From the IMG/VR virus record IMGVR_UViG_3300006752_004097, positions 5,607 to 69,606 of that record: a DNA stretch of 64,000 nt. One strand, written 5' to 3'. The stretch's first letter is position 1, and each line of letters opens with the position of its first letter. The notes below the pieces were generated by a model. The model saw only the letters and a program-made list of their open reading frames with translations, was not told where the DNA came from and did not search any database. This DNA comes from a virus. Position numbers and translations under genes: made by a program. Of the stretch, positions 41,995-61,055 are shown one piece after another.

Positions 41995-42999
41995 TTGTTT
42001 AAAAAATGTGCAGTATTCACAGATATTCACTTTGGACTCAAGTCCAATTCAGTGGCTCATAATCAAGACTGTGAAGCGTTCGTAGATTGGTATATTGAAA
42101 AGGCAAAAGCCGAAGGTTGTGAAACAGGCATCTTTATGGGTGACTGGCATCATAATAGAAATAGTCTAAACATTGTTACAATGGATTATTCAATCCGATG
42201 TCTTGAAAAACTTGGTAAAGCATTTGAACAGTTTTTTTACTTTCCTGGTAACCATGACTTATATTATAAAGATAAAAGAGATATTCAGAGTGTTGAGTTT
42301 GCAAAGCACATTGACGGCGTAACTGTAATTGATGAAATTACAACAATAGGCGATAGTACTATGGTGCCGTGGCTTGTTGGTGAAGAATGGAAGAAGATTC
42401 CTAAGATTAAAACAAAATATATGTTTGGTCATTTTGAACTTCCTAATTTTTATATGAACGCAATGGTACAGATGCCTGACACAGGTGAATTACAATCTAA
42501 ACATTTTGTACATCAAGATTATGTTTTTAGTGGACACTTTCATAAACGTCAAACACAAGGAAATGTAACATACATTGGTAATGCGTTTCCACACAACTAT
42601 GCAGATGCATGGGATGATAAACGTGGTATGATGATATTAGAACATGGCGGAGAACCACAATATGTTGATTGGACAGATTGTCCTAAGTATAGAACTGTAA
42701 AACTAAGTCAACTAATTGATGAAAAAGATTCATTACTAAAAAGTAAAATGTATCTAAGAGTTACACTTGATATTAACATTAGTTACGAAGAAGCAAGTTT
42801 TATCAAAGAAGAATTTATGAGGAACTACAGTTGTAGAGAACTTACATTAATTCCAAGTCAGCAAGATGACGAAATAAACAGCGACATTGACATTACAAAA
42901 TTTGAAAGTGTAGATCAAATTGTTGCAGAAGAAATTAATGCTATTGATTCAGAAAACTACAATAAGCAAACACTACTAAACATTTACAACGAGTTATAG
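41995..42999 (+). CDS. Recombination nuclease gp47 (Mre11/SbcD-like)
   Basis: DIHFG, GDWHH, GNHD, GHFE and SGHFH metallophosphoesterase motifs. Confidence 0.92.
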   Translation: MFKKCAVFTDIHFGLKSNSVAHNQDCEAFVDWYIEKAKAEGCETGIFMGDWHHNRNSLNIVTMDYSIRCLEKLGKAFEQFFYFPGNHDLYYKDKRDIQSVEFAKHIDGVTVIDEITTIGDSTMVPWLVGEEWKKIPKIKTKYMFGHFELPNFYMNAMVQMPDTGELQSKHFVHQDYVFSGHFHKRQTQGNVTYIGNAFPHNYADAWDDKRGMMILEHGGEPQYVDWTDCPKYRTVKLSQLIDEKDSLLKSKMYLRVTLDINISYEEASFIKEEFMRNYSCRELTLIPSQQDDEINSDIDITKFESVDQIVAEEINAIDSENYNKQTLLNIYNEL

Positions 43000-43000
43000 A

Positions 43001-44773
43001 ATGATATTAATTAAAGACCTAACAGTAAAGAACTTTATGAGTGTGGGTAACCAGACTCAAGCAGTTAACTTTAATAATAAGCAATTAACCTTAGTCCTTG
43101 GAGAAAACTTAGATCAAGGTGGTGACGACAGTGGGTCACGTAACGGTACAGGTAAGACCACAATCATTAATGCATTATCTTACGCATTGTATGGTGTGGC
43201 ACTAACTAACATTAAACGCAATAACCTTATCAATAAAACAAACGGTAAAGGTATGCTTGTTACTCTTAACTTTGAAAAGGCAGGAGTAAATTATCGCATT
43301 GAAAGAGGACGTGGTCCTAACTTATTAAAGTTTTTCATTGACGATACAGAACAAGACATTGAAGATATGAGTCAAGGAGATAGTCGTAAGACTCAAGCAG
43401 ACATTGGCGAACTACTACAAATGAGTCATACAATGTTTAAGCACTTGGTTGCATTAAACACATATACTGAACCGTTCTTAAGTCTAAAAGCAAACGATCA
43501 ACGTGAAATCATTGAACAGTTACTTGGTATTACTATACTTTCTGAGAAAGCAGAAGAATTAAAAGTAAAACAAAAAGAAATTCGTGACGCTATTACAGAA
43601 GAAACTGCACGTATTAATGCTATACAAACAAGTAATGATAAGATAGGCGAAACTATTAACAGTTTGCAAATTAAAAGTACTGCTTGGAAAACGCAAAATG
43701 CAAAAGACTGTGAACGCTTACAAACAGGCATTGATGAATTAGAACACTTGGACATTGAACAAGAACTTTCTAATCATGAATTACTTTCTAAGTGGGAAGA
43801 AACTGATGCTTCAAGAAGAAACTTAACTAAAGAAAAAGCAACACTTGAAAGTGCATTATCACAAACAGATAAACAGGTTGCAAAAGCAAGTGGAGAACTT
43901 GAACACATTGATGAAGCAAAATGTCATGCTTGTGGACAAGACTTGCCAGAAGAAAAGATTGACGAAATACAAAAGAAATTAGAAGAAGAATATGCTGACA
44001 CAATGTCCTACTTAATGGAGATTGATACAAAGTTTCAAAAGGTACAGGCTAAACTTGCTGACTTAGGCGAAGAACAAACAAAGCCAAATACATTTTATGA
44101 AACTGCAAAAGAAGCATATGAACACAGAAGTAATGTTGATAATTTAAAATCAGCACTTGGTGCAAAAGAAACAGAAACAGATCCTTACGTTGATCAAATT
44201 GACGAACTAAACAATAGTGCTATTCAAGAAGTTGATTGGAATTCAGTTAACGATCTAAATTCAATGAAAGAACATCAAGACTTCTTGTACAAACTATTAA
44301 CAAATAAAGATAGTTTTATTCGTAAAAAGATTATTGAACAAAACCTTGCATATCTAAACAACAGATTAACAAATTACTTAGACAAGATAGGATTACCGCA
44401 CAGTGTTGTATTCCAAAACGACTTAACAGTATTAATTACACAACTTGGTCAAGACTTAGACTTTGACAACTTGAGTAGAGGTGAGCGTAATAGACTTATA
44501 CTTGGTATGAGTTTTGCATTCCGTGATGTATGGGAAAGTTTATATCAGAATATTAATTTAATGTTCATTGATGAGTTGATTGACAGTGGAATGGATACAG
44601 CAGGTGTTGAACAAAGTCTTGCAATCCTTAAGAAGATGGGTAGAGAACGCAAAAAGAATATCTATCTAATATCACACAAAGACGAATTACAAGGTCGTGT
44701 GCAGAATGTACTTAAGGTTGTAAAAGAGAATGGCTTTACATCATACGCAAACGATATTGATATAGTACAATGA
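43001..44773 (+). CDS. Recombination ATPase gp46 (Rad50/SbcC-like)
   Basis: Walker A NGTGKTT, zinc hook CHAC, signature LSRGE, Walker B FIDE and ISH. Confidence 0.93.
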   Translation: MILIKDLTVKNFMSVGNQTQAVNFNNKQLTLVLGENLDQGGDDSGSRNGTGKTTIINALSYALYGVALTNIKRNNLINKTNGKGMLVTLNFEKAGVNYRIERGRGPNLLKFFIDDTEQDIEDMSQGDSRKTQADIGELLQMSHTMFKHLVALNTYTEPFLSLKANDQREIIEQLLGITILSEKAEELKVKQKEIRDAITEETARINAIQTSNDKIGETINSLQIKSTAWKTQNAKDCERLQTGIDELEHLDIEQELSNHELLSKWEETDASRRNLTKEKATLESALSQTDKQVAKASGELEHIDEAKCHACGQDLPEEKIDEIQKKLEEEYADTMSYLMEIDTKFQKVQAKLADLGEEQTKPNTFYETAKEAYEHRSNVDNLKSALGAKETETDPYVDQIDELNNSAIQEVDWNSVNDLNSMKEHQDFLYKLLTNKDSFIRKKIIEQNLAYLNNRLTNYLDKIGLPHSVVFQNDLTVLITQLGQDLDFDNLSRGERNRLILGMSFAFRDVWESLYQNINLMFIDELIDSGMDTAGVEQSLAILKKMGRERKKNIYLISHKDELQGRVQNVLKVVKENGFTSYANDIDIVQ

Positions 44774-44979
44774 GCATTGAAGACGACACACATGATAAGT
44801 TAACCAAGGCATACTTGGAATATTACAAAGAACTTGCACTATACCAGAAGCATGGTGGAGAACGTACCATGCAATCAAGCCGAAAATGGCTCAGAGAGAT
44901 ACGCACACTGGCTAAAATACGTATGGACGAGATTAAATCCGACTTTGATGCCAAGAAAGAGGCGAGGAAAAGATCGTAA
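44770..44979 (+). CDS. Small basic helical protein
   Basis: 69 aa, coupled to gp46 by ATGA overlap. SRKWLREIRTLAK loosely resembles Hc1-like DNA-binding proteins. Confidence 0.55.
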   Translation: MSIEDDTHDKLTKAYLEYYKELALYQKHGGERTMQSSRKWLREIRTLAKIRMDEIKSDFDAKKEARKRS

Positions 44980-44993
44980 CAGTAAGTAAGTTC

Positions 44994-45416
44994 ATGCAGT
45001 GGACTTATAAAAACAAAAAAGTTAAAGAAATCCCAGAAGGCGTAGAGGGGTTTGTGTACATAATCACAAATACCACTAACAACAAAAAATACATAGGCAA
45101 GAAGTTAGCAAAATTTAAGACCACTAAACCACCACTTAAAGGCCGTAAGAACAAACGCAGAGGTTACAAAGAGTCAGATTGGCGTGACTACTGGGGAAGT
45201 TCAGACAAACTCAACGAAGACGTACAAGCATTAGGCACTGATAAATTCACAAGAGAGATACTTTACTATTGTAACAGTAGAGGCTTGATGAGTTACCTTG
45301 AGGCAAGAGAACAATTTGAACGCCGTGTGTTAGAGAGCGACGATTATTACAACGGTATTATTAATGTTAGAGTTGGCGGTTCAAAAATTCTCCGAGAAGC
45401 ACTAAACAAACTATAG
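44994..45416 (+). CDS. Stand-alone GIY-YIG family endonuclease
   Basis: GFVYIITNTTNNKKYIGKK, YWGSS, FTREIL, E(AREQ) and YYN. Preceded by GTAAGTA (44982-44988) 5 nt before the ATG. Confidence 0.8.
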   Translation: MQWTYKNKKVKEIPEGVEGFVYIITNTTNNKKYIGKKLAKFKTTKPPLKGRKNKRRGYKESDWRDYWGSSDKLNEDVQALGTDKFTREILYYCNSRGLMSYLEAREQFERRVLESDDYYNGIINVRVGGSKILREALNKL

Positions 45417-45419
45417 GCT

Positions 45420-45890
45420 ATATACAGCACATAAGGTTAGCAGGCCAGTATAATATACTGCTGAGTAAAAGGTCCCGTGATAAGGACACTCGTACATATT
45501 GATCGACTACCCAGAGGTAGGAAGCCAACAAACAAATTGGGCTCACTGGTTGATATAGATTGAATGCTGTCAGTCGAAAAACACAAACACGTACATAAAA
45601 ACTCTTTAGCAATAGGAACGAAGCGAGAGGTAGTTGGAAACAACGATGTCGACGTAGGTTGGGAAAGGTCAGAGCCCATTGTACTTTGTGTATAAACAAA
45701 TTACCTATTTCCAAGTCTTGGCTGTGACGAGCTCACATGATGTTCAAGATTAGATGGAACCCTTAAACAGGTTCCGTCTGACTGAAACAATCTACATGAT
45801 GCTAAATTGCTTCGCAATTATTATATCATTAATTAAAAGATATAATGTTTGAGCGTAAGCGAAAACATAGTTGCTCAAAGAGCAACTTAT
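45420..45890 (+). ncRNA. Candidate large structured non-coding element (RNA, or partly ssDNA hairpins)
   Basis: About ten local hairpins and at least four long-range 6-7 bp complementarities, with no credible protein. G-U pairs favour the + strand. Confidence 0.6.
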
Positions 45891-45923
45891 AGCATTTTAA
45901 TATGTTTCAGTATTCAAACAGTT

Positions 45924-46106
45924 CTAATCGTATAAATCAGGATCACGTCCTAATCCATTTGGTCTTTCCGGATGTACTTCGAGTATTATATACTCTTCAT
46001 CTGGTTTAACTTCTTTTAATTGTTGTACCGTCTGAAATGCTTCACTCTGCGAAAGTGCGGATATGACTACATTTTTAGGAACAACTACAAATTTTGTCTC
46101 TGCCAT
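45924..46106 (-). CDS. Small hypothetical protein
   Basis: 60-aa ORF with plausible composition and TTAAATA at 46115-46121 upstream. Confidence 0.55.
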   Translation of the reverse strand: MAETKFVVVPKNVVISALSQSEAFQTVQQLKEVKPDEEYIILEVHPERPNGLGRDPDLYD

Positions 46107-46170
46107 CGTAAGATTATTTAAAAGAATCTGATTGGAATAAATAGTTATAGTTAAAACAAAGGACTATTTC

Positions 46171-46824
46171 ATGAAAGTTACACAGATCGTTGCTGAATCC
46201 ACTAAAAAACCTGTTTCCGAGGCGCCTGTATCAGGCTTAGCACAGTTTGGTAAGAAAGTTCTTGCTAAAACAGCCGCAAAAGTAGGTGCAAAAAATTTCG
46301 CGTCTGGCGTTGCAGGCAACGTTGACACAGGTGCTGAAGCAAACGAATTACGTAAAGCATGGCAAAATCATCAAGGTTCTATTGGCGGTAAAATGGGTGC
46401 TAACGATCCAGCAGAGTTTAAGCAATGGTTACTTAACAATGGCTTTAAAGGCAAAGATGCAGTCATTGATAAAGCAATGACAGATAATAAAATTACAGGA
46501 CCGTTTGGTAAAGGTCCACTTGATAAAGCATTATTACAAATAGTACAGAATTCTAAAAAGGCGTCGGCACAAGGTGCTGGTGCAGATCAAACAGCCACAA
46601 AAGCACAAGCAGGGGCTACAGCAGGAGCAGGAGCAGGTAAAGGCGCTACAGCAGGAGCAAGTGCTACAGCAGGTGCAGGTAATGAAATTCCACAAGGAAT
46701 TAAAGATCAATTAGATCAACTTACACCTGGAGAGAAAAAATATTTAAGTGATACACTTGGTCAAGGTAGTGCTCCACCTAAGGCTACTCCAGCACCAACG
46801 GCACCAGCAGGAGCAACAGCATAA
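46171..46824 (+). CDS. Putative internal head protein
   Basis: Late promoter ATAAATA at 46137-46143 plus SD. MKVTQIVAE N-terminus and Ala/Gly/Lys-rich composition. Confidence 0.55.
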   Translation: MKVTQIVAESTKKPVSEAPVSGLAQFGKKVLAKTAAKVGAKNFASGVAGNVDTGAEANELRKAWQNHQGSIGGKMGANDPAEFKQWLLNNGFKGKDAVIDKAMTDNKITGPFGKGPLDKALLQIVQNSKKASAQGAGADQTATKAQAGATAGAGAGKGATAGASATAGAGNEIPQGIKDQLDQLTPGEKKYLSDTLGQGSAPPKATPAPTAPAGATA

Positions 46825-46825
46825 C

Positions 46826-49597
46826 ATGAAACTTAATGAAGTAACAGCATACAATCTTAAGTCACAAGCAATATTAACAGAATCTCAGTCATGGGAAATG
46901 TTAACTGAGCAACAAAAAATCTATGTTGGTTCATGGGAAAAGAATGTTTGGCCATTAGTTGAGCAGTACAGCAACTTAATGGAAGCCGATCTTAAACCTG
47001 ACGAAATACAAAAAATATTTACACAGGCTGAAAAAATATCAATTGAAGGCGGTGAGAATTTAACAGCATTAGGTAAAGCAGGTAAAGTAACTGCTGAAGT
47101 TTCAGGCAAGATGAAAACTGAAATTGACAAGTTAATGGATGCCGCGGCAAATAGCGGACCTGTTAAAAACTTTGATGCACAGTTTGAAAAACTAAAAACA
47201 CAATTAAAGACCAAAGTAAAAGATATGCCCGGCGGTCAAAAAATCCTTGCAGGAGTTGACAAGTGGGGCGGATTTGCAAAAGACAATCCAGCCAAGAGTG
47301 CATTTATTATTGGTGCAATGACATCAGTACTTGCATTTGCAAGTGGTGGTATTTTAAGTGGTGCCGCAATTGGTTTCTTCTTAAAGTTAGCAAACAACAC
47401 TATTAAGGGCGATAAACTATCAACAGCAGTTGCTAAAGGTGTTAAAGGCGCGGCAATTGGTGCTATTGCAGGTGCGTTGGGCGATGCTATATCAGGAACA
47501 GCAGAAGATATGTTCCCAGCAGAGATTACACAAACATTTATGACTACCAATGGCGAGATAGATATAACAGAACTAACAGCCATGGGTGCAGACAGTATCG
47601 AAGACTTAGATTCTGAAGCAATTAAAGAACTTATTCAAACACGTACAGCAATGATACAGATGATGCCTAAATTAGACGATGAAGCATCAGCAGTATTAGA
47701 TAAACAGTTAGACGCATTAAACGATAAAATATTCGAACTTGAACCAGATGGTAAAAATGTAAAACAAGCAATTGACAATCTTCAAACTAAATTTAACATT
47801 GAAGGTGAAGGCATTGACGTTGTTGTAAAATCAAACACTACAGGTGATGCAAACGTTACTTTAGCAGATCCAGATAAGTTAGGTGATGAAGGCGACTACG
47901 GTTCAGGACCTGAGCAAGATGTAGGTGGTACTGGCAAAGACACAGTTGACACAACAAGTACTGCTGACCCAGACGGAGATGTAGGTGCTGAAGGAACTGT
48001 AAAAGCACAGTATAGCAAAGAAGAAATGAACGAACTTGGTATGGACACAAGTGAACAACCAACAAGTACAGGAATTGCTAAACTTGGTGACGAACTTGAT
48101 TTAAGTCCAGAACAAGTTGAAAAACTTCAATCAGTTTATCAAATGGAAAAAGCAGTTTCAACCAGAGAGTTTATGGGCATAAAAATGTCCGCTGACACTT
48201 CAATAAAAGATTTTGCAGGTAGTACACCACAAGTAGTTGACGGACTTGAAGGCGAGTATGAAGCAGGATCAGTATTTAAAAAGACTATTGAAACTAAAAT
48301 TCCAGGTTCAGACAAACCATGGAGTGCATTAGTTACAGGTTCAGTTGAAGGTGTAGATGCAGAAGGAAATATTGTTTACTCAATGTCTAAAGTATTTGTA
48401 GGTCCGGAAGTAATGGACAGTGAATTCTGGGCAATCATTGATTCACTACCAGAAGACCAAAAAGACAGAATGATGGACATGTTTGATACATGGAAAGAAA
48501 CAGCAGAATTAGAAACAGGCATTGATACATTCAAACAAGACATGGCTGAAAAAATTATGCAAGGTGCGGCGGCAGTTGCACTTGGTGGAGCATTAGCCAA
48601 ATCAGAATATGTAGAAAAAGGTGCAAAGAAAGAATCAAAAGTTTATAAAAATGCAGAACAGTTAGAAGAACAATACTTTAACGAGTTAGAAGATTACATT
48701 CTTAATGAAATAGACATTAAACAAATGGCTAAGAAAGCCGCGGCAGGTGCGGCTAACATAGGTAAAGCGGCGGCTAAAGGTACAGGTAAAGCAGTAGGCG
48801 CTGGCTTAGACAAAGCAGGTGCAGTAGCAAACAAAGGTATTGGCAAGGCTGTAGGCGCAGTTTCAGGCGCGGCTAAAAAAGCAGGTAAAGAATTAGGACA
48901 GAAAGTTACAACACGTAAACTTAACAAGGCTTGGACAAAAGCAGGTGAACCTACAGACATTGGTTCTATTACTAATATACTTTCAGCACAAGGATTAAGC
49001 GATGAGCAGATCGGTACAGTTGCTAAAGATACAGGGCAACCTCTTAAGAAAGATCCAAACGCCGGTGGACAAGATCCAGAAGGCGAAACTGGTAGCACGG
49101 CGAGTTCGGGAGGTGTTAAAGGTGGTAAAGGAACTAAATCAAGTCCAGACCCTAAAGCAGACAAAGACGGTGACGGAATAGCAGACGGAAGTAGTGCATC
49201 AACATTACAAGGCAAGGCTTCCAAAGATCCATTTAACGATGGGCCGTTCGATATGAAGTCAAGTCCACCTAAGGGTACAAACGCAGGTGCAACTAAAGAT
49301 GACTTTGAATGGAAAGGCGCACAGTGGATTAGCACATCTACAGGAAAAGTTGCAGACAAGGCAACAGCGGCAAAACTTGGTAATCCTAAAATAAACGAAT
49401 TAATACGTGAGATTCAAAAAGCAAAAGTTGAAAAACTTGTTGTAGATTATCTTGCAGGATCGGATAAGAAAGCACCAGCGGCTAAACCAGCGGCTAAACC
49501 AGCAGTTACAAAAACAATGACTTCTAAAGCGGCTAAGAAAGCACCAGCACCAGCACCAGGCGATGCAGGTGGCAAGTACGCTTCAATTCAAAACTAA
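46826..49597 (+). CDS. Large putative internal/ejection protein (about 923 aa)
   Basis: Start reassigned to MKLNEV (46826), right after the upstream stop. It has hydrophobic Gly/Ala helices, an acidic middle and a Lys/Ala/Pro tail. Confidence 0.55.
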   Translation: MKLNEVTAYNLKSQAILTESQSWEMLTEQQKIYVGSWEKNVWPLVEQYSNLMEADLKPDEIQKIFTQAEKISIEGGENLTALGKAGKVTAEVSGKMKTEIDKLMDAAANSGPVKNFDAQFEKLKTQLKTKVKDMPGGQKILAGVDKWGGFAKDNPAKSAFIIGAMTSVLAFASGGILSGAAIGFFLKLANNTIKGDKLSTAVAKGVKGAAIGAIAGALGDAISGTAEDMFPAEITQTFMTTNGEIDITELTAMGADSIEDLDSEAIKELIQTRTAMIQMMPKLDDEASAVLDKQLDALNDKIFELEPDGKNVKQAIDNLQTKFNIEGEGIDVVVKSNTTGDANVTLADPDKLGDEGDYGSGPEQDVGGTGKDTVDTTSTADPDGDVGAEGTVKAQYSKEEMNELGMDTSEQPTSTGIAKLGDELDLSPEQVEKLQSVYQMEKAVSTREFMGIKMSADTSIKDFAGSTPQVVDGLEGEYEAGSVFKKTIETKIPGSDKPWSALVTGSVEGVDAEGNIVYSMSKVFVGPEVMDSEFWAIIDSLPEDQKDRMMDMFDTWKETAELETGIDTFKQDMAEKIMQGAAAVALGGALAKSEYVEKGAKKESKVYKNAEQLEEQYFNELEDYILNEIDIKQMAKKAAAGAANIGKAAAKGTGKAVGAGLDKAGAVANKGIGKAVGAVSGAAKKAGKELGQKVTTRKLNKAWTKAGEPTDIGSITNILSAQGLSDEQIGTVAKDTGQPLKKDPNAGGQDPEGETGSTASSGGVKGGKGTKSSPDPKADKDGDGIADGSSASTLQGKASKDPFNDGPFDMKSSPPKGTNAGATKDDFEWKGAQWISTSTGKVADKATAAKLGNPKINELIREIQKAKVEKLVVDYLAGSDKKAPAAKPAAKPAVTKTMTSKAAKKAPAPAPGDAGGKYASIQN

Positions 49598-60505: not shown

Positions 60506-60605
60506 ATACTTGTGTCAGATAGTGTGCCGCAAGGCGGACTTATGCAGAATACCAACTGCGTACCGGATAGAACCCGGATAGGACTACTTTATAGGAGAAA
60601 ACAAA
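60502..60605 (+). promoter_or_regulatory. Late promoter ATAAATA (60502-60508) plus structured leader of about 92 nt
   Basis: Three hairpins inside a potential multibranch junction, ahead of an AGGAG SD. Confidence 0.55.
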
Positions 60606-61055
60606 ATGGGAAGACCAATTAATAAAAAGTTTTTCGGAGTACCTACAGCAGGTGGCAACGAAATCAAAGTTGACTTTCATAACGGCTCTGCTGTTACTGA
60701 AGGTTATATTGTTAAGCAATTAGGATCTAAGAAGTTTCGTGTAGCGGCTATCGGTACACCAGGAACGAAGTACGATCGTTTCTTAACAACAGGTAAATTA
60801 GCATCTGCACTTACTGGTACAGAAATGGCGATCACTGTAAAAGGTGATGACGCAGAAACTTATCAAGTTTCTAAAATTTCTGGACGTAAAGCAACAATCA
60901 TTGCACCAGATGGTACAGGCTCAAATGCATTAAGCGGAACATCAATTGCTTGGAACTTTAGTACTGCAAACAATGACAGTGCTGTTCAGTTTGAAGAAGC
61001 GGGTGACGACGATACATTAGTCGGCACTGATGATGACGATTTCACTAACGCATAA
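60606..61055 (+). CDS. Putative virion structural protein
   Basis: 149 aa with its own late promoter, a strong SD and a terminator. Confidence 0.6.
   Translation: MGRPINKKFFGVPTAGGNEIKVDFHNGSAVTEGYIVKQLGSKKFRVAAIGTPGTKYDRFLTTGKLASALTGTEMAITVKGDDAETYQVSKISGRKATIIAPDGTGSNALSGTSIAWNFSTANNDSAVQFEEAGDDDTLVGTDDDDFTNA

Follow-up and report, generated by a model that had tools for sequence, protein, structure and literature searches.

The nuclease gene and the RNA behind it

The DNA analysed here, referred to as the window, is a stretch of 64,000 nucleotides (nt) from IMG/VR record IMGVR_UViG_3300006752_004097, a 69.6-kb record of an uncultured virus; its source is an uncultured marine T4-like phage. 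On the plus strand, a gene for a GIY-YIG nuclease of 140 amino acids (aa) is followed by an element of about 500 nt, and then by a convergent open reading frame (ORF) of 60 aa. We are nearly certain that the element is a pseudoknotted non-coding RNA gene of ~470 nt on the plus strand, carrying two identical boxes, which would be read through from the gp47-gp46-orf69-nuclease unit and would end at a shared terminator hairpin. Its working name is twin-box RNA; no published description was found in the literature searched. The evidence demonstrates the RNA fold, its pseudoknot and twin boxes, as well as the synteny and the replacement of the nuclease gene. The RNA type found in the window (type A) is absent from the RNA catalogue Rfam.

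The initial annotation of this DNA had described an ornate RNA directly behind the nuclease gene, in about 500 nt without a credible protein. Both statements stand. Between 45417 and 45923 no credible gene was found, the longest ORFs measuring 98 and 80 aa (minus strand) and 43 aa (plus strand), and no ORF is conserved in place across 80 related loci. A protein-coding or pseudogene reading was rejected for want of a conserved ORF or frame. Compared with shuffled sequences, the fold has z = -5.0 on the plus strand and z = -2.7 on the minus strand. At least 572 relatives of the nuclease were found in viral contigs, of which 80 loci were kept and 77 had downstream sequence; an nhmmer profile of the downstream region matched 66 of these 77 (24 at full length, 10 cut by contig ends, 17 over the 3' two-thirds and 15 in the last part alone). 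The main covariation alignment (A2) contained 60 distinct full-length RNAs. Its consensus fold was paired in 93.1% of cells versus 84.8% in shuffles, and 46 pairs were altered on both sides versus 32.4 in shuffles; neither value was reached in any of 500 shuffles. The covariation score was 0.258, compared with 0.119 in shuffles and at most 0.072 when partners were slid. G-U pairs, which would be C-A on the opposite strand, are frequent, and the RNA strand is therefore the plus strand. The parts of the RNA are as follows.

45424..45890, plus strand: twin-box RNA, whole gene, type A (nhmmer conservation, covariation, no Rfam match)
45424..45429, plus strand: 5' strand of pseudoknot PK1, ACAGCA, pairing with loop 45565-45570
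45440..45461, plus strand: hairpin H1, GCAG/CTGC, 100% paired, 2 pairs changed on both sides
45462..45492, plus strand: two-part hairpin H2, TGAG/CTCG and GTCCC/AGGAC, 6 pairs changed on both sides
45496..45556, plus strand: multibranch stem H3 around hairpins 45507-45520 and 45524-45541, 97.6% paired, 5 pairs compensated; the inner hairpins covary by eye
45558..45575, plus strand: hairpin H4, GATTG/CAGTC, its loop TGCTGT being the 3' strand of PK1, 99% paired, 5/5 pairs compensated
45602..45629, plus strand: hairpin H5 with invariant loop GGAACGA, 83.1% paired, 4 compensated pairs
45634..45645, plus strand: short GAAA-capped hairpin H6, seen in alignments, taking hairpin insertions of 50-90 nt in relatives (A2 columns 250-316)
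45651..45711, plus strand: H7, GACGTAGGT/ACCTATTTC, with inner hairpin TGGG/CCCA (45660-45678), 99.4% and 93.3% paired, compensated pairs in each
45715-45750, plus strand: TCTTG/CAAGA stem, 88.7% of cells paired, 2 pairs changed on both sides
45735..45741, plus strand: box 1, ACATGAT, identical to box 2
45752..45779, plus strand: hairpin H9 between the boxes, TAGATGGAACC/GGTTCCGTCT, 98.3% paired, one-sided (A-U/G-U) changes only
45794..45800, plus strand: box 2, ACATGAT, identical to box 1
45805..45819, plus strand: hairpin H10 on a C(UUCG)G loop, 95.7% paired, 5 compensated pairs
45846..45867, plus strand: hairpin H11, GUUU-GA-GC-GNNA-GC-GA-AAAC (helices 18 and 19 of the consensus fold), conserved in types A-C and used as a search motif
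45869..45887, unstranded: terminal hairpin, terminator-like for the convergent minus-strand gene, 8/8 pairs compensated; likely the 3' end of the RNA

In an alignment of 17 loci that included the leader (A4), PK1 (ACAGCA/TGCTGT) was paired in 17/17 sequences with 5 of 6 pairs compensated, a result obtained in 0/500 shuffles; on alignment A1, all nine sequences reaching that far were paired. The word pairs were ACAGCA/TGCTGT, CAGTA/TACTG, CCAACA/TGTTGG, CTAACA/TGTTAG, CCGACA/TGTCGG and GCAACA/TGTTGC. PK1 is a genuine pseudoknot because its 3' partner is the loop of H4, so that it crosses 45558-62/45571-75, and it sets the 5' border of the RNA at 45424 or earlier, 8 nt past the nuclease stop codon. 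Of the four long-range pairings first proposed, this one (45424 with 45565) was upheld. The other three, TCGACT/AGTCGA (67.5% of cells paired), TGGGCTC/GAGCCCA (63.9%) and TAGATTG/CAATCTA (90.7%), have partners that lie in covarying local hairpins and were discarded; as a set on A1, the four gave 78.2% versus 78.2% in shuffles. Pairing of the 5' end with CTGACT or AATCTA (helices 1 and 10) involves positions that are invariant or carry uncompensated mismatches. A kissing contact of the H5 loop with the UUCG loop was rejected, as loop variants were uncompensated by eye.

The local stems described at first fared unevenly. Covariation was found for GAGT..GTCC/GGAC.ACTC (45462-45492) and CTACC/GGTAG (45507-45520), and the stem that is H9 proved almost always paired, with changes on one side only. 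TCTTG/CAAGA is supported in part, by its two pairs changed on both sides and its fraction of paired cells. The stem CAGTAT/ATACTG is specific to the window, the family stem being GCRG/CYGC (45440-43/45458-61), and TTGGGAAAGGT/ACCTATTTCCAA is replaced by the covarying GTAGGT/ACCTAY (45654-59/45703-08). Overall, the initial observation was partly confirmed, and its interpretation is partly supported: an ornate RNA linked to the nuclease gene and most likely co-transcribed with it is upheld, cleavage guided by the RNA or with the RNA bound is not supported.

The RNA has no match in Rfam at gathering scores or at E 10. At permissive thresholds the window gave two sub-threshold chance matches only, and six variant loci gave nothing except a weak match, resembling small nucleolar RNA (snoRNA), outside the RNA. 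A match to a known Rfam family, named at first as something that would remove the novelty, is thus lacking for the RNA of the window; one sister type (in locus L076) has Rfam family RF01718 as its 5' domain. In a blastn search against cultured phages the RNA element had no match. The first description had not recognised a group I or group II intron in the element, and the analysis agrees: no intron family matched at E 10, no plus-strand coding sequence follows the element, and no skipping joint is present in RNA-library contigs (weak evidence). It is not a transfer RNA (tRNA) or transfer-messenger RNA (tmRNA) either, since ARAGORN finds none in the element; the two-piece tmRNA of Methylophilales phage Melnitz is a different gene elsewhere in that genome.

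For expression, six RNA libraries containing at least 26% of sampled words were used, as contigs, which may contain DNA and show no ends, strand or level. The nuclease gene and the RNA are covered by contigs from four libraries, which come from four studies, and one contig joins both; this is a weak hint that the region is transcribed. Stretches that no RNA-library contig covers carry no weight as evidence. No joint linking the two boxes was seen in these contigs, which cannot prove the absence of excision between the boxes.

Transcription signals point to read-through. The late-type promoter that had been ascribed to the nuclease gene was not found: the count of the T4-type late promoter TATAAATA in the window is 0, and no sigma-70-like site lies on the plus strand within 44600-46250. 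Between the stop codon of the nuclease gene and the conserved start of the RNA there are 8-25 nt, for either nuclease type described below, with no promoter-like site. The sole terminator-like hairpin of the nuclease and RNA region is that at 45869-45887, and none separates the nuclease gene from the RNA, as first noted. Transcription converges at the 3' side of the element. The RNA is most likely co-transcribed with the nuclease gene, a view drawn from these sequence features.

Twin boxes and RNA types

Compared by alignment column, the two boxes agreed in all 60 RNAs (ACATGAA 41, ACATGAT 14, ACATAAA 3, ACATAAT 2). An anchor-based census gave identical boxes in 75/75 modules, with the eighth base differing in 28. 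More distant RNA types use other words, always twice: AGATAAT, TCGTGAT, ATATGAT, ACATCAA, ACGTGAA, AGATGAA, ACAGGAA and GGATGAA. The window has the arrangement by which these modules are recognised, namely identical 7-mers 51-70 nt apart with a hairpin between them and, farther 3', a UUCG hairpin, a GNRA hairpin and a terminator. The boxes are single-stranded in the consensus fold.

No partner for the boxes was found. Their complement is absent within 1.5 kb on either side, with G-U allowed, and from any conserved column of the RNA (the best column agrees in 19/60), and the RNA contains no third copy of the box word. No residue of the nuclease tracks the boxes, the best normalised mutual information being 0.5. 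In the 69.6-kb record the box 7-mer occurs at 9 + 5 sites versus 4.2 expected per strand, and is neither avoided nor enriched. The boxes are therefore variable, identical to each other and without a complement in the RNA or nearby, so that the only sequence known to change with one box is the DNA of the other.

Several simpler roles were rejected. The boxes do not pair together, as their variants do not form palindromes and the altered boxes of L007 would give mismatches. They do not mask the nuclease start codon, with which they show no covariation, nor do they serve as start codons, the variants ACATAAA and ACATCAA having no AUG. A target-site duplication of a mobile hairpin was dismissed on account of the variable linker that parts box 1 from the hairpin, and a K-turn or C/D-box reading because several variants have no GA.

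All RNA types share a 3' module consisting of box 1, a hairpin, box 2, the C(UUCG)G hairpin, an A/U-rich linker, the GNRA hairpin H11 and the terminator. The 5' part, which in type A comprises PK1 and H1-H4, differs among types, and the 5' domain is exchangeable between phage lineages. Type A is that of the window, type B occurs in L010, L013, L031, L039 and L041, type D in 8 loci, and a further type in L093 and L099. In L262 two copies of the H11 motif stand 89 nt apart; this is a single metagenome contig.

The 5' part of the RNA in L076 is a full match to Polynucleobacter-1 (RF01718; 71.8 bits, E 5e-13). This match has its start at the nuclease stop, and downstream of it come the twin boxes (both AGATAAT), the UUCG hairpin and H11. 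No RF01718 match was found in the window at E 10, even when 161 nt were searched, nor in the whole 69.6-kb record (gathering score 37 bits). Both Polynucleobacter-1 and the 5' domain of the window's RNA have two hairpins and then a multibranch stem, and the match in L076 takes the very place of that domain. The Rfam model, at 141 nt, spans about one third of the RNA and has no twin boxes. The resemblance is thus one of position and architecture only. Polynucleobacter-1 was described by Weinberg et al. 2010 (PMC2864571), and in the parts of the literature searched it is mentioned in that paper only.

In other RNA types (L043, L047, L251, L294, L384, L389 and L414), the first 60-100 nt past the nuclease stop hold 2-4 direct repeats (AGGCACA-like, or units of 10-11 nt three times), versus a single AGGC at the nuclease stop codon in the window. 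These 5'-border repeats could be promoter, processing or protein-binding sites.

Two nuclease families in a conserved slot

The RNA lies at the end of a gene series, given here with the convergent ORF that follows it.

41995-42999, plus strand: gp47 (SbcD/Mre11-like, 334 aa), an ORF matching phrog_100 at E 1.9e-66
43001-44773, plus strand: gp46 (SbcC/Rad50-like, 590 aa), an ORF whose tblastn matches are annotated as recombination endonuclease subunit
44770..44979, plus strand: orf69, a small basic protein of 69 aa, the conserved left flank of the nuclease slot
44994..45416, plus strand: minimal GIY-YIG nuclease, 140 aa, a SegE-type domain alone (PF19835, phrog_447)
45924..46106, minus strand: convergent 60-aa ORF bounding the RNA element, from the ORF list

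gp47 and gp46 (41995..44773, plus strand) form the head of the transcription unit that contains the nuclease gene. The nuclease had been described as essentially a catalytic domain, and this is borne out by Pfam PF19835 (SegE_GIY-YIG), which matches residues 3-123 over all 123 profile positions (E 1.6e-34). It also matches phrog_447 (E 6e-37), a profile of 148 positions, and TIGR01453 (NCBIfam, likeness to group I intron endonucleases) at E 1e-4, which is under the cut-off of that family. Its relatives are 137-152 aa long, ~140 aa being the usual length of the family. The closest cultured relative is a hypothetical protein of phage Melnitz (73% identity), and homologs at 40-50% identity occur in hundreds of cyanophage records. 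Measured against Seg-type homing endonucleases, the protein has the GIY-YIG catalytic domain and no C-terminal DNA-binding module. Its presence is not patchy, the gene being found in 22/22 informative loci seeded with gp46. The word GTAAGTA is kept just 5' of the nuclease start codon in most loci (44982-44993 in the window and the same place in relatives) and could be a translation signal of the phage group. Inside the nuclease ORF, a trypanosomatid snoRNA model matched 45308-45397 (plus strand) below its threshold (28.2 bits versus 50), almost certainly by chance. orf69 has no family in Pfam, PHROG or NCBIfam, and is homologous (E 7e-08) to the ORF preceding the second type of nuclease in L251. 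The convergent 60-aa ORF has no family match in Pfam or PHROG.

Linkage was also counted from the RNA side, where a scan with the H9 motif gave 58 loci with at least 900 nt upstream. The GIY-YIG gene is directly upstream in 53 of these, and in two more (L092 and L124) a homolog of 50-53% identity is directly downstream, in a context without gp46 and in the order RNA, then nuclease. The nuclease thus adjoins the RNA in 55/58 loci. The remaining three are L118, which ends at the motif, and L093 and L099, which have no recognisable nuclease. gp46 lies upstream in 41/44 RNA-seeded loci. Together with the 22/22 gp46-seeded loci, these counts bear out linkage of RNA and nuclease across related phages, and an empty nuclease slot was not seen among the sampled loci. 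Subclades of the nuclease are associated with subtypes of the RNA; the nuclease retains 70-96% identity, and the 5' domains of the RNA have diverged past recognition by BLAST. Among 185,579 species genomes the motif was found in two contigs of one genome (L207 and L208), both carrying gp46 and the nuclease gene and therefore phage DNA. These contigs (335 kb and 153 kb) hold gp46, the GIY-YIG gene and the RNA and are filed under a metagenome-assembled genome of Neomarinimicrobiota; they probably come from phages and were placed in a bacterial bin. In six loci (L005, L048, L061, L104, L135 and L125) an extra ORF of ~90-100 aa lies between the nuclease gene and the RNA, which are therefore not always contiguous. 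A gap of ~630 nt follows the nuclease in the nuclease-seeded loci L024, L027 and L030.

A scan with the H11 motif gave many chance matches, 23 GIY-YIG loci and two loci of another kind, L251 and L294. Matches without the nuclease numbered 26 in metagenomes, of which L246, L251 and L294 were examined; that in L246 was rejected as a chance match in a GC-rich coding region. In L251 and L294 the order is gp46, an orf69 homolog, a PD-(D/E)XK endonuclease of 172 aa and the twin-box RNA. The two endonucleases match PF24608 (E 7e-26 and 3e-25), and PHROGs groups the protein with RusA-like junction resolvases. A search seeded with this protein gave 523 relatives, of which 80 were kept and 75 loci had at least 600 nt downstream. 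The RNA is present in 22 of the 75 (19 by twin boxes and H11, 3 by profile), none of which has a GIY-YIG gene. In five of the PD-(D/E)XK loci (L369 and L371-L374) a full type-A RNA aligns with that of the window from the PK1 strand to the terminator. A GIY-YIG nuclease and an unrelated PD-(D/E)XK nuclease thus fill the same slot after gp46 and orf69, before homologous RNA, and an RNA behind two unrelated folds is hard to reconcile with one dedicated RNA-binding partner.

In a cultured phage, the Pseudomonas jumbo phage PA5oct (L432; 75.7-76.4 kb), a convergent structural gene and a PD-(D/E)XK (RusA-like) gene come after gp47 and gp46, and beside these genes ~730 nt contain only three annotated ORFs of 38-50 aa. 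That region has no Rfam match, a fold z of -2.4 and one 7-mer pair 56 nt apart. It may be a distant counterpart of the RNA locus, open to bench study.

Two observations concern the window beyond this locus. An Ala/Gly/Lys-rich ORF of 217 aa overlaps the start of a low-complexity ORF of 949 aa (46171-49597, plus strand), and neither has a family. A full-length match to the freshwater-2 RNA motif (RF02980) lies at 60523-60608 on the plus strand (72.9 bits versus a gathering score of 49.9); since it ends at an AUG, it probably sits in the 5' leader of a gene.

Possible functions and related systems

We tentatively propose that the twin boxes act at their own locus, through an out-of-register R-loop that marks a site for a DNA break or a start of replication. 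The transcript would pair again with the template strand of the gene that encodes it, but shifted, so that box 1 of the RNA lies on the DNA of box 2 and the hairpin between them loops out. Such re-pairing would hold a persistent R-loop or a branched structure, which a structure-selective minimal nuclease (GIY-YIG here, PD-(D/E)XK in sisters) might then cut, giving gp46/47 (Mre11/Rad50-like) an end for recombination-dependent replication. The R-loop, its cleavage and the role in replication are what we infer from sequence comparison; the reading as a break or start site follows from a nuclease slot that is never empty, an alternative nuclease that resembles resolvases, and gp46/47 as neighbours.

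Several points weigh against this proposal. The argument for cross-pairing is by elimination, and a partner in trans, farther off or in the host, is possible. An RNA-DNA contact of 7 base pairs is short. Nuclease homologs elsewhere work without the RNA: in Melnitz the homolog stands after nrdB, the genes behind it are ordinary small ones that have ribosome-binding sites, the H11 motif occurs nowhere in that genome, and in the cyanophages P-HM1 and S-SRM01 no gap follows the homolog. SegE-type GIY-YIG enzymes are site-specific and not structure-specific nucleases. Among the PD-(D/E)XK loci, 53/75 have no recognisable RNA; 32 of these 53 have gp46 upstream, and in 23 of the 32 there is a gap of 340 nt or more that is poor in ORFs. 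The cumulative GC skew has its minimum near 40-41 kb and none at the RNA. The gene order of T4-like phages is generally stable, so that adjacency may be inherited and not functional.

About equally likely to the R-loop, and so likewise possible but far from established, is an independent RNA that acts in trans as a riboregulator, sponge or scaffold, its boxes pairing with a 7-nt target twice in phage or host RNA, with the nucleases being mere neighbours, either homing endonucleases or recombination enzymes of the gp46/47 group. Variable nuclease families between two conserved flanks, an orf69-like gene and the RNA, are the classic picture of a free-standing homing endonuclease, and the weak NCBIfam likeness to group I intron endonucleases fits that picture. 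Each partner also occurs alone, the RNA without a nuclease in L093 and L099, the nuclease without the RNA in Melnitz and cyanophages, and the PD-(D/E)XK homolog beside gp46/47 without a recognised RNA in PA5oct; and the nuclease residues are indifferent to the boxes. Homing endonucleases are patchy, however, and this slot was never empty (22/22; 53 + 2 of 58). The nuclease also kept its identity while the 5' domains of the RNA diverged, RNA and nuclease remain adjacent in inverted order without gp46, with subtypes going together, and the 69.6-kb record yielded no target in trans.

A nuclease that is guided or scaffolded by the RNA, the view taken in the initial annotation, seems unlikely. Here the RNA would bind the nuclease and the boxes would be short guides, for instance to the two arms of an inverted-repeat DNA target. 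The tight linkage in two gene orders, the lack of recognisable targeting domains in both nucleases, and boxes that show guide-like variation and stay unpaired in the consensus fold would suit such a system. It would, however, require two unrelated folds to use the same scaffold, no nuclease residue covaries with the boxes, neither a target nor self-avoidance was found in the record, and homologs function without the RNA, just as the RNA occurs without the nuclease. No RNA-guided GIY-YIG enzyme appears in the parts of the literature searched.

It is rather improbable that the RNA is a cis-acting operon end, meaning a structured 3' untranslated region of the gp47-gp46-nuclease messenger RNA or an inhibitor of a toxic nuclease in the manner of an RNA antitoxin. 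The lack of a promoter or terminator between the nuclease gene and the RNA and the position of the RNA where transcription converges agree with this, and the order RNA, hairpin, nuclease in L124 resembles type III toxin-antitoxin loci. The known type III toxins are RNases and not GIY-YIG or PD-(D/E)XK proteins, which counts against the antitoxin variant. A length of ~470 nt, a pseudoknot and boxes changing in lock-step exceed what stabilisation of a messenger would need, the RNA is 3' of the gene in most loci and 5' in others, and it occurs without the nuclease.

Hardly any room is left for the view that the element acts purely as DNA or is what remains of the C-terminal half of a longer Seg-type gene: T4 Seg proteins do exceed 140 aa, but ~140 aa is the normal length of this family (phrog_447, 148 positions), covariation keeps helices and not frames, with strand-specific G-U pairs, and the same element stands behind an unrelated nuclease.

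Few large knotted RNAs are conserved across hundreds of phages, and every one solved so far has revealed new RNA biology. The twin-box family is abundant in uncultured T4-like phages of marine, estuarine and fresh waters, and no catalogue lists it apart from a single domain in one subtype, which has been an orphan since 2010. Its evolutionary signature is unusual in that the boxes may be nearly any sequence, yet must match each other. Its constant position next to Mre11/Rad50-like genes and a small nuclease, whichever of the two folds the latter has, points to a role in DNA breakage, recombination or the start of replication, an open area in T4-like phages other than T4. At its widest, the R-loop proposal would make the twin-box RNA the programmable part of a phage DNA-break system, with boxes that pair at their own locus or at a two-copy target and so build a nucleic-acid structure, and nucleases of two folds that cut this structure and feed gp46/47; we hold this to be improbable. 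Such a system would specify, by RNA and with interchangeable proteins, a site-specific break or replication start. Programmable boxes would be of technological interest, and an RNA independent of the nucleases would still be a new class of large RNA.

Among known systems, GOLLD (RF01998) and ROOL (RF03087) are large, intricately folded RNAs of phages and prophages, of unknown function. The twin-box RNA is likewise large, ornate and phage-borne, but has no Rfam match to RF01998 or RF03087, and to our knowledge neither GOLLD nor ROOL has twin identical boxes or, as a rule, a nuclease neighbour.

The OMEGA RNAs of TnpB and IscB and the IS110 bridge RNAs (PMC10690162, PMC13565253) are similar in being structured RNAs at the end of a small nuclease gene with short programmable segments. 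The nucleases here are GIY-YIG or PD-(D/E)XK enzymes instead of RuvC-type ones, the boxes match neither a target nor an element end, and the two segments are identical, not divided into target and donor. Of the features of OMEGA or CRISPR-like systems, variable boxes are present, and no complement, avoidance or covariation between protein and boxes was seen.

On the protein side, the nuclease shares the SegE-type domain with the free-standing Seg endonucleases of T4. T4 SegB sits in a tRNA gene cluster, and a nuclease gene beside a conserved RNA gene resembles SegB among tRNAs. The nuclease of the window differs in lacking the C-terminal DNA-binding part, in being present in every sampled relative and not patchy, and in being replaced by PD-(D/E)XK in the same slot. 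The RNA itself may also be compared with ColE1 RNA II and T4 oriF and oriG, which are R-loop primers. The twin boxes are mixed-sequence 7-mers, not G runs, and the skew does not shift at the RNA; by analogy with these primers, an upstream segment re-pairing with the downstream template would explain why the RNA carries two identical segments.

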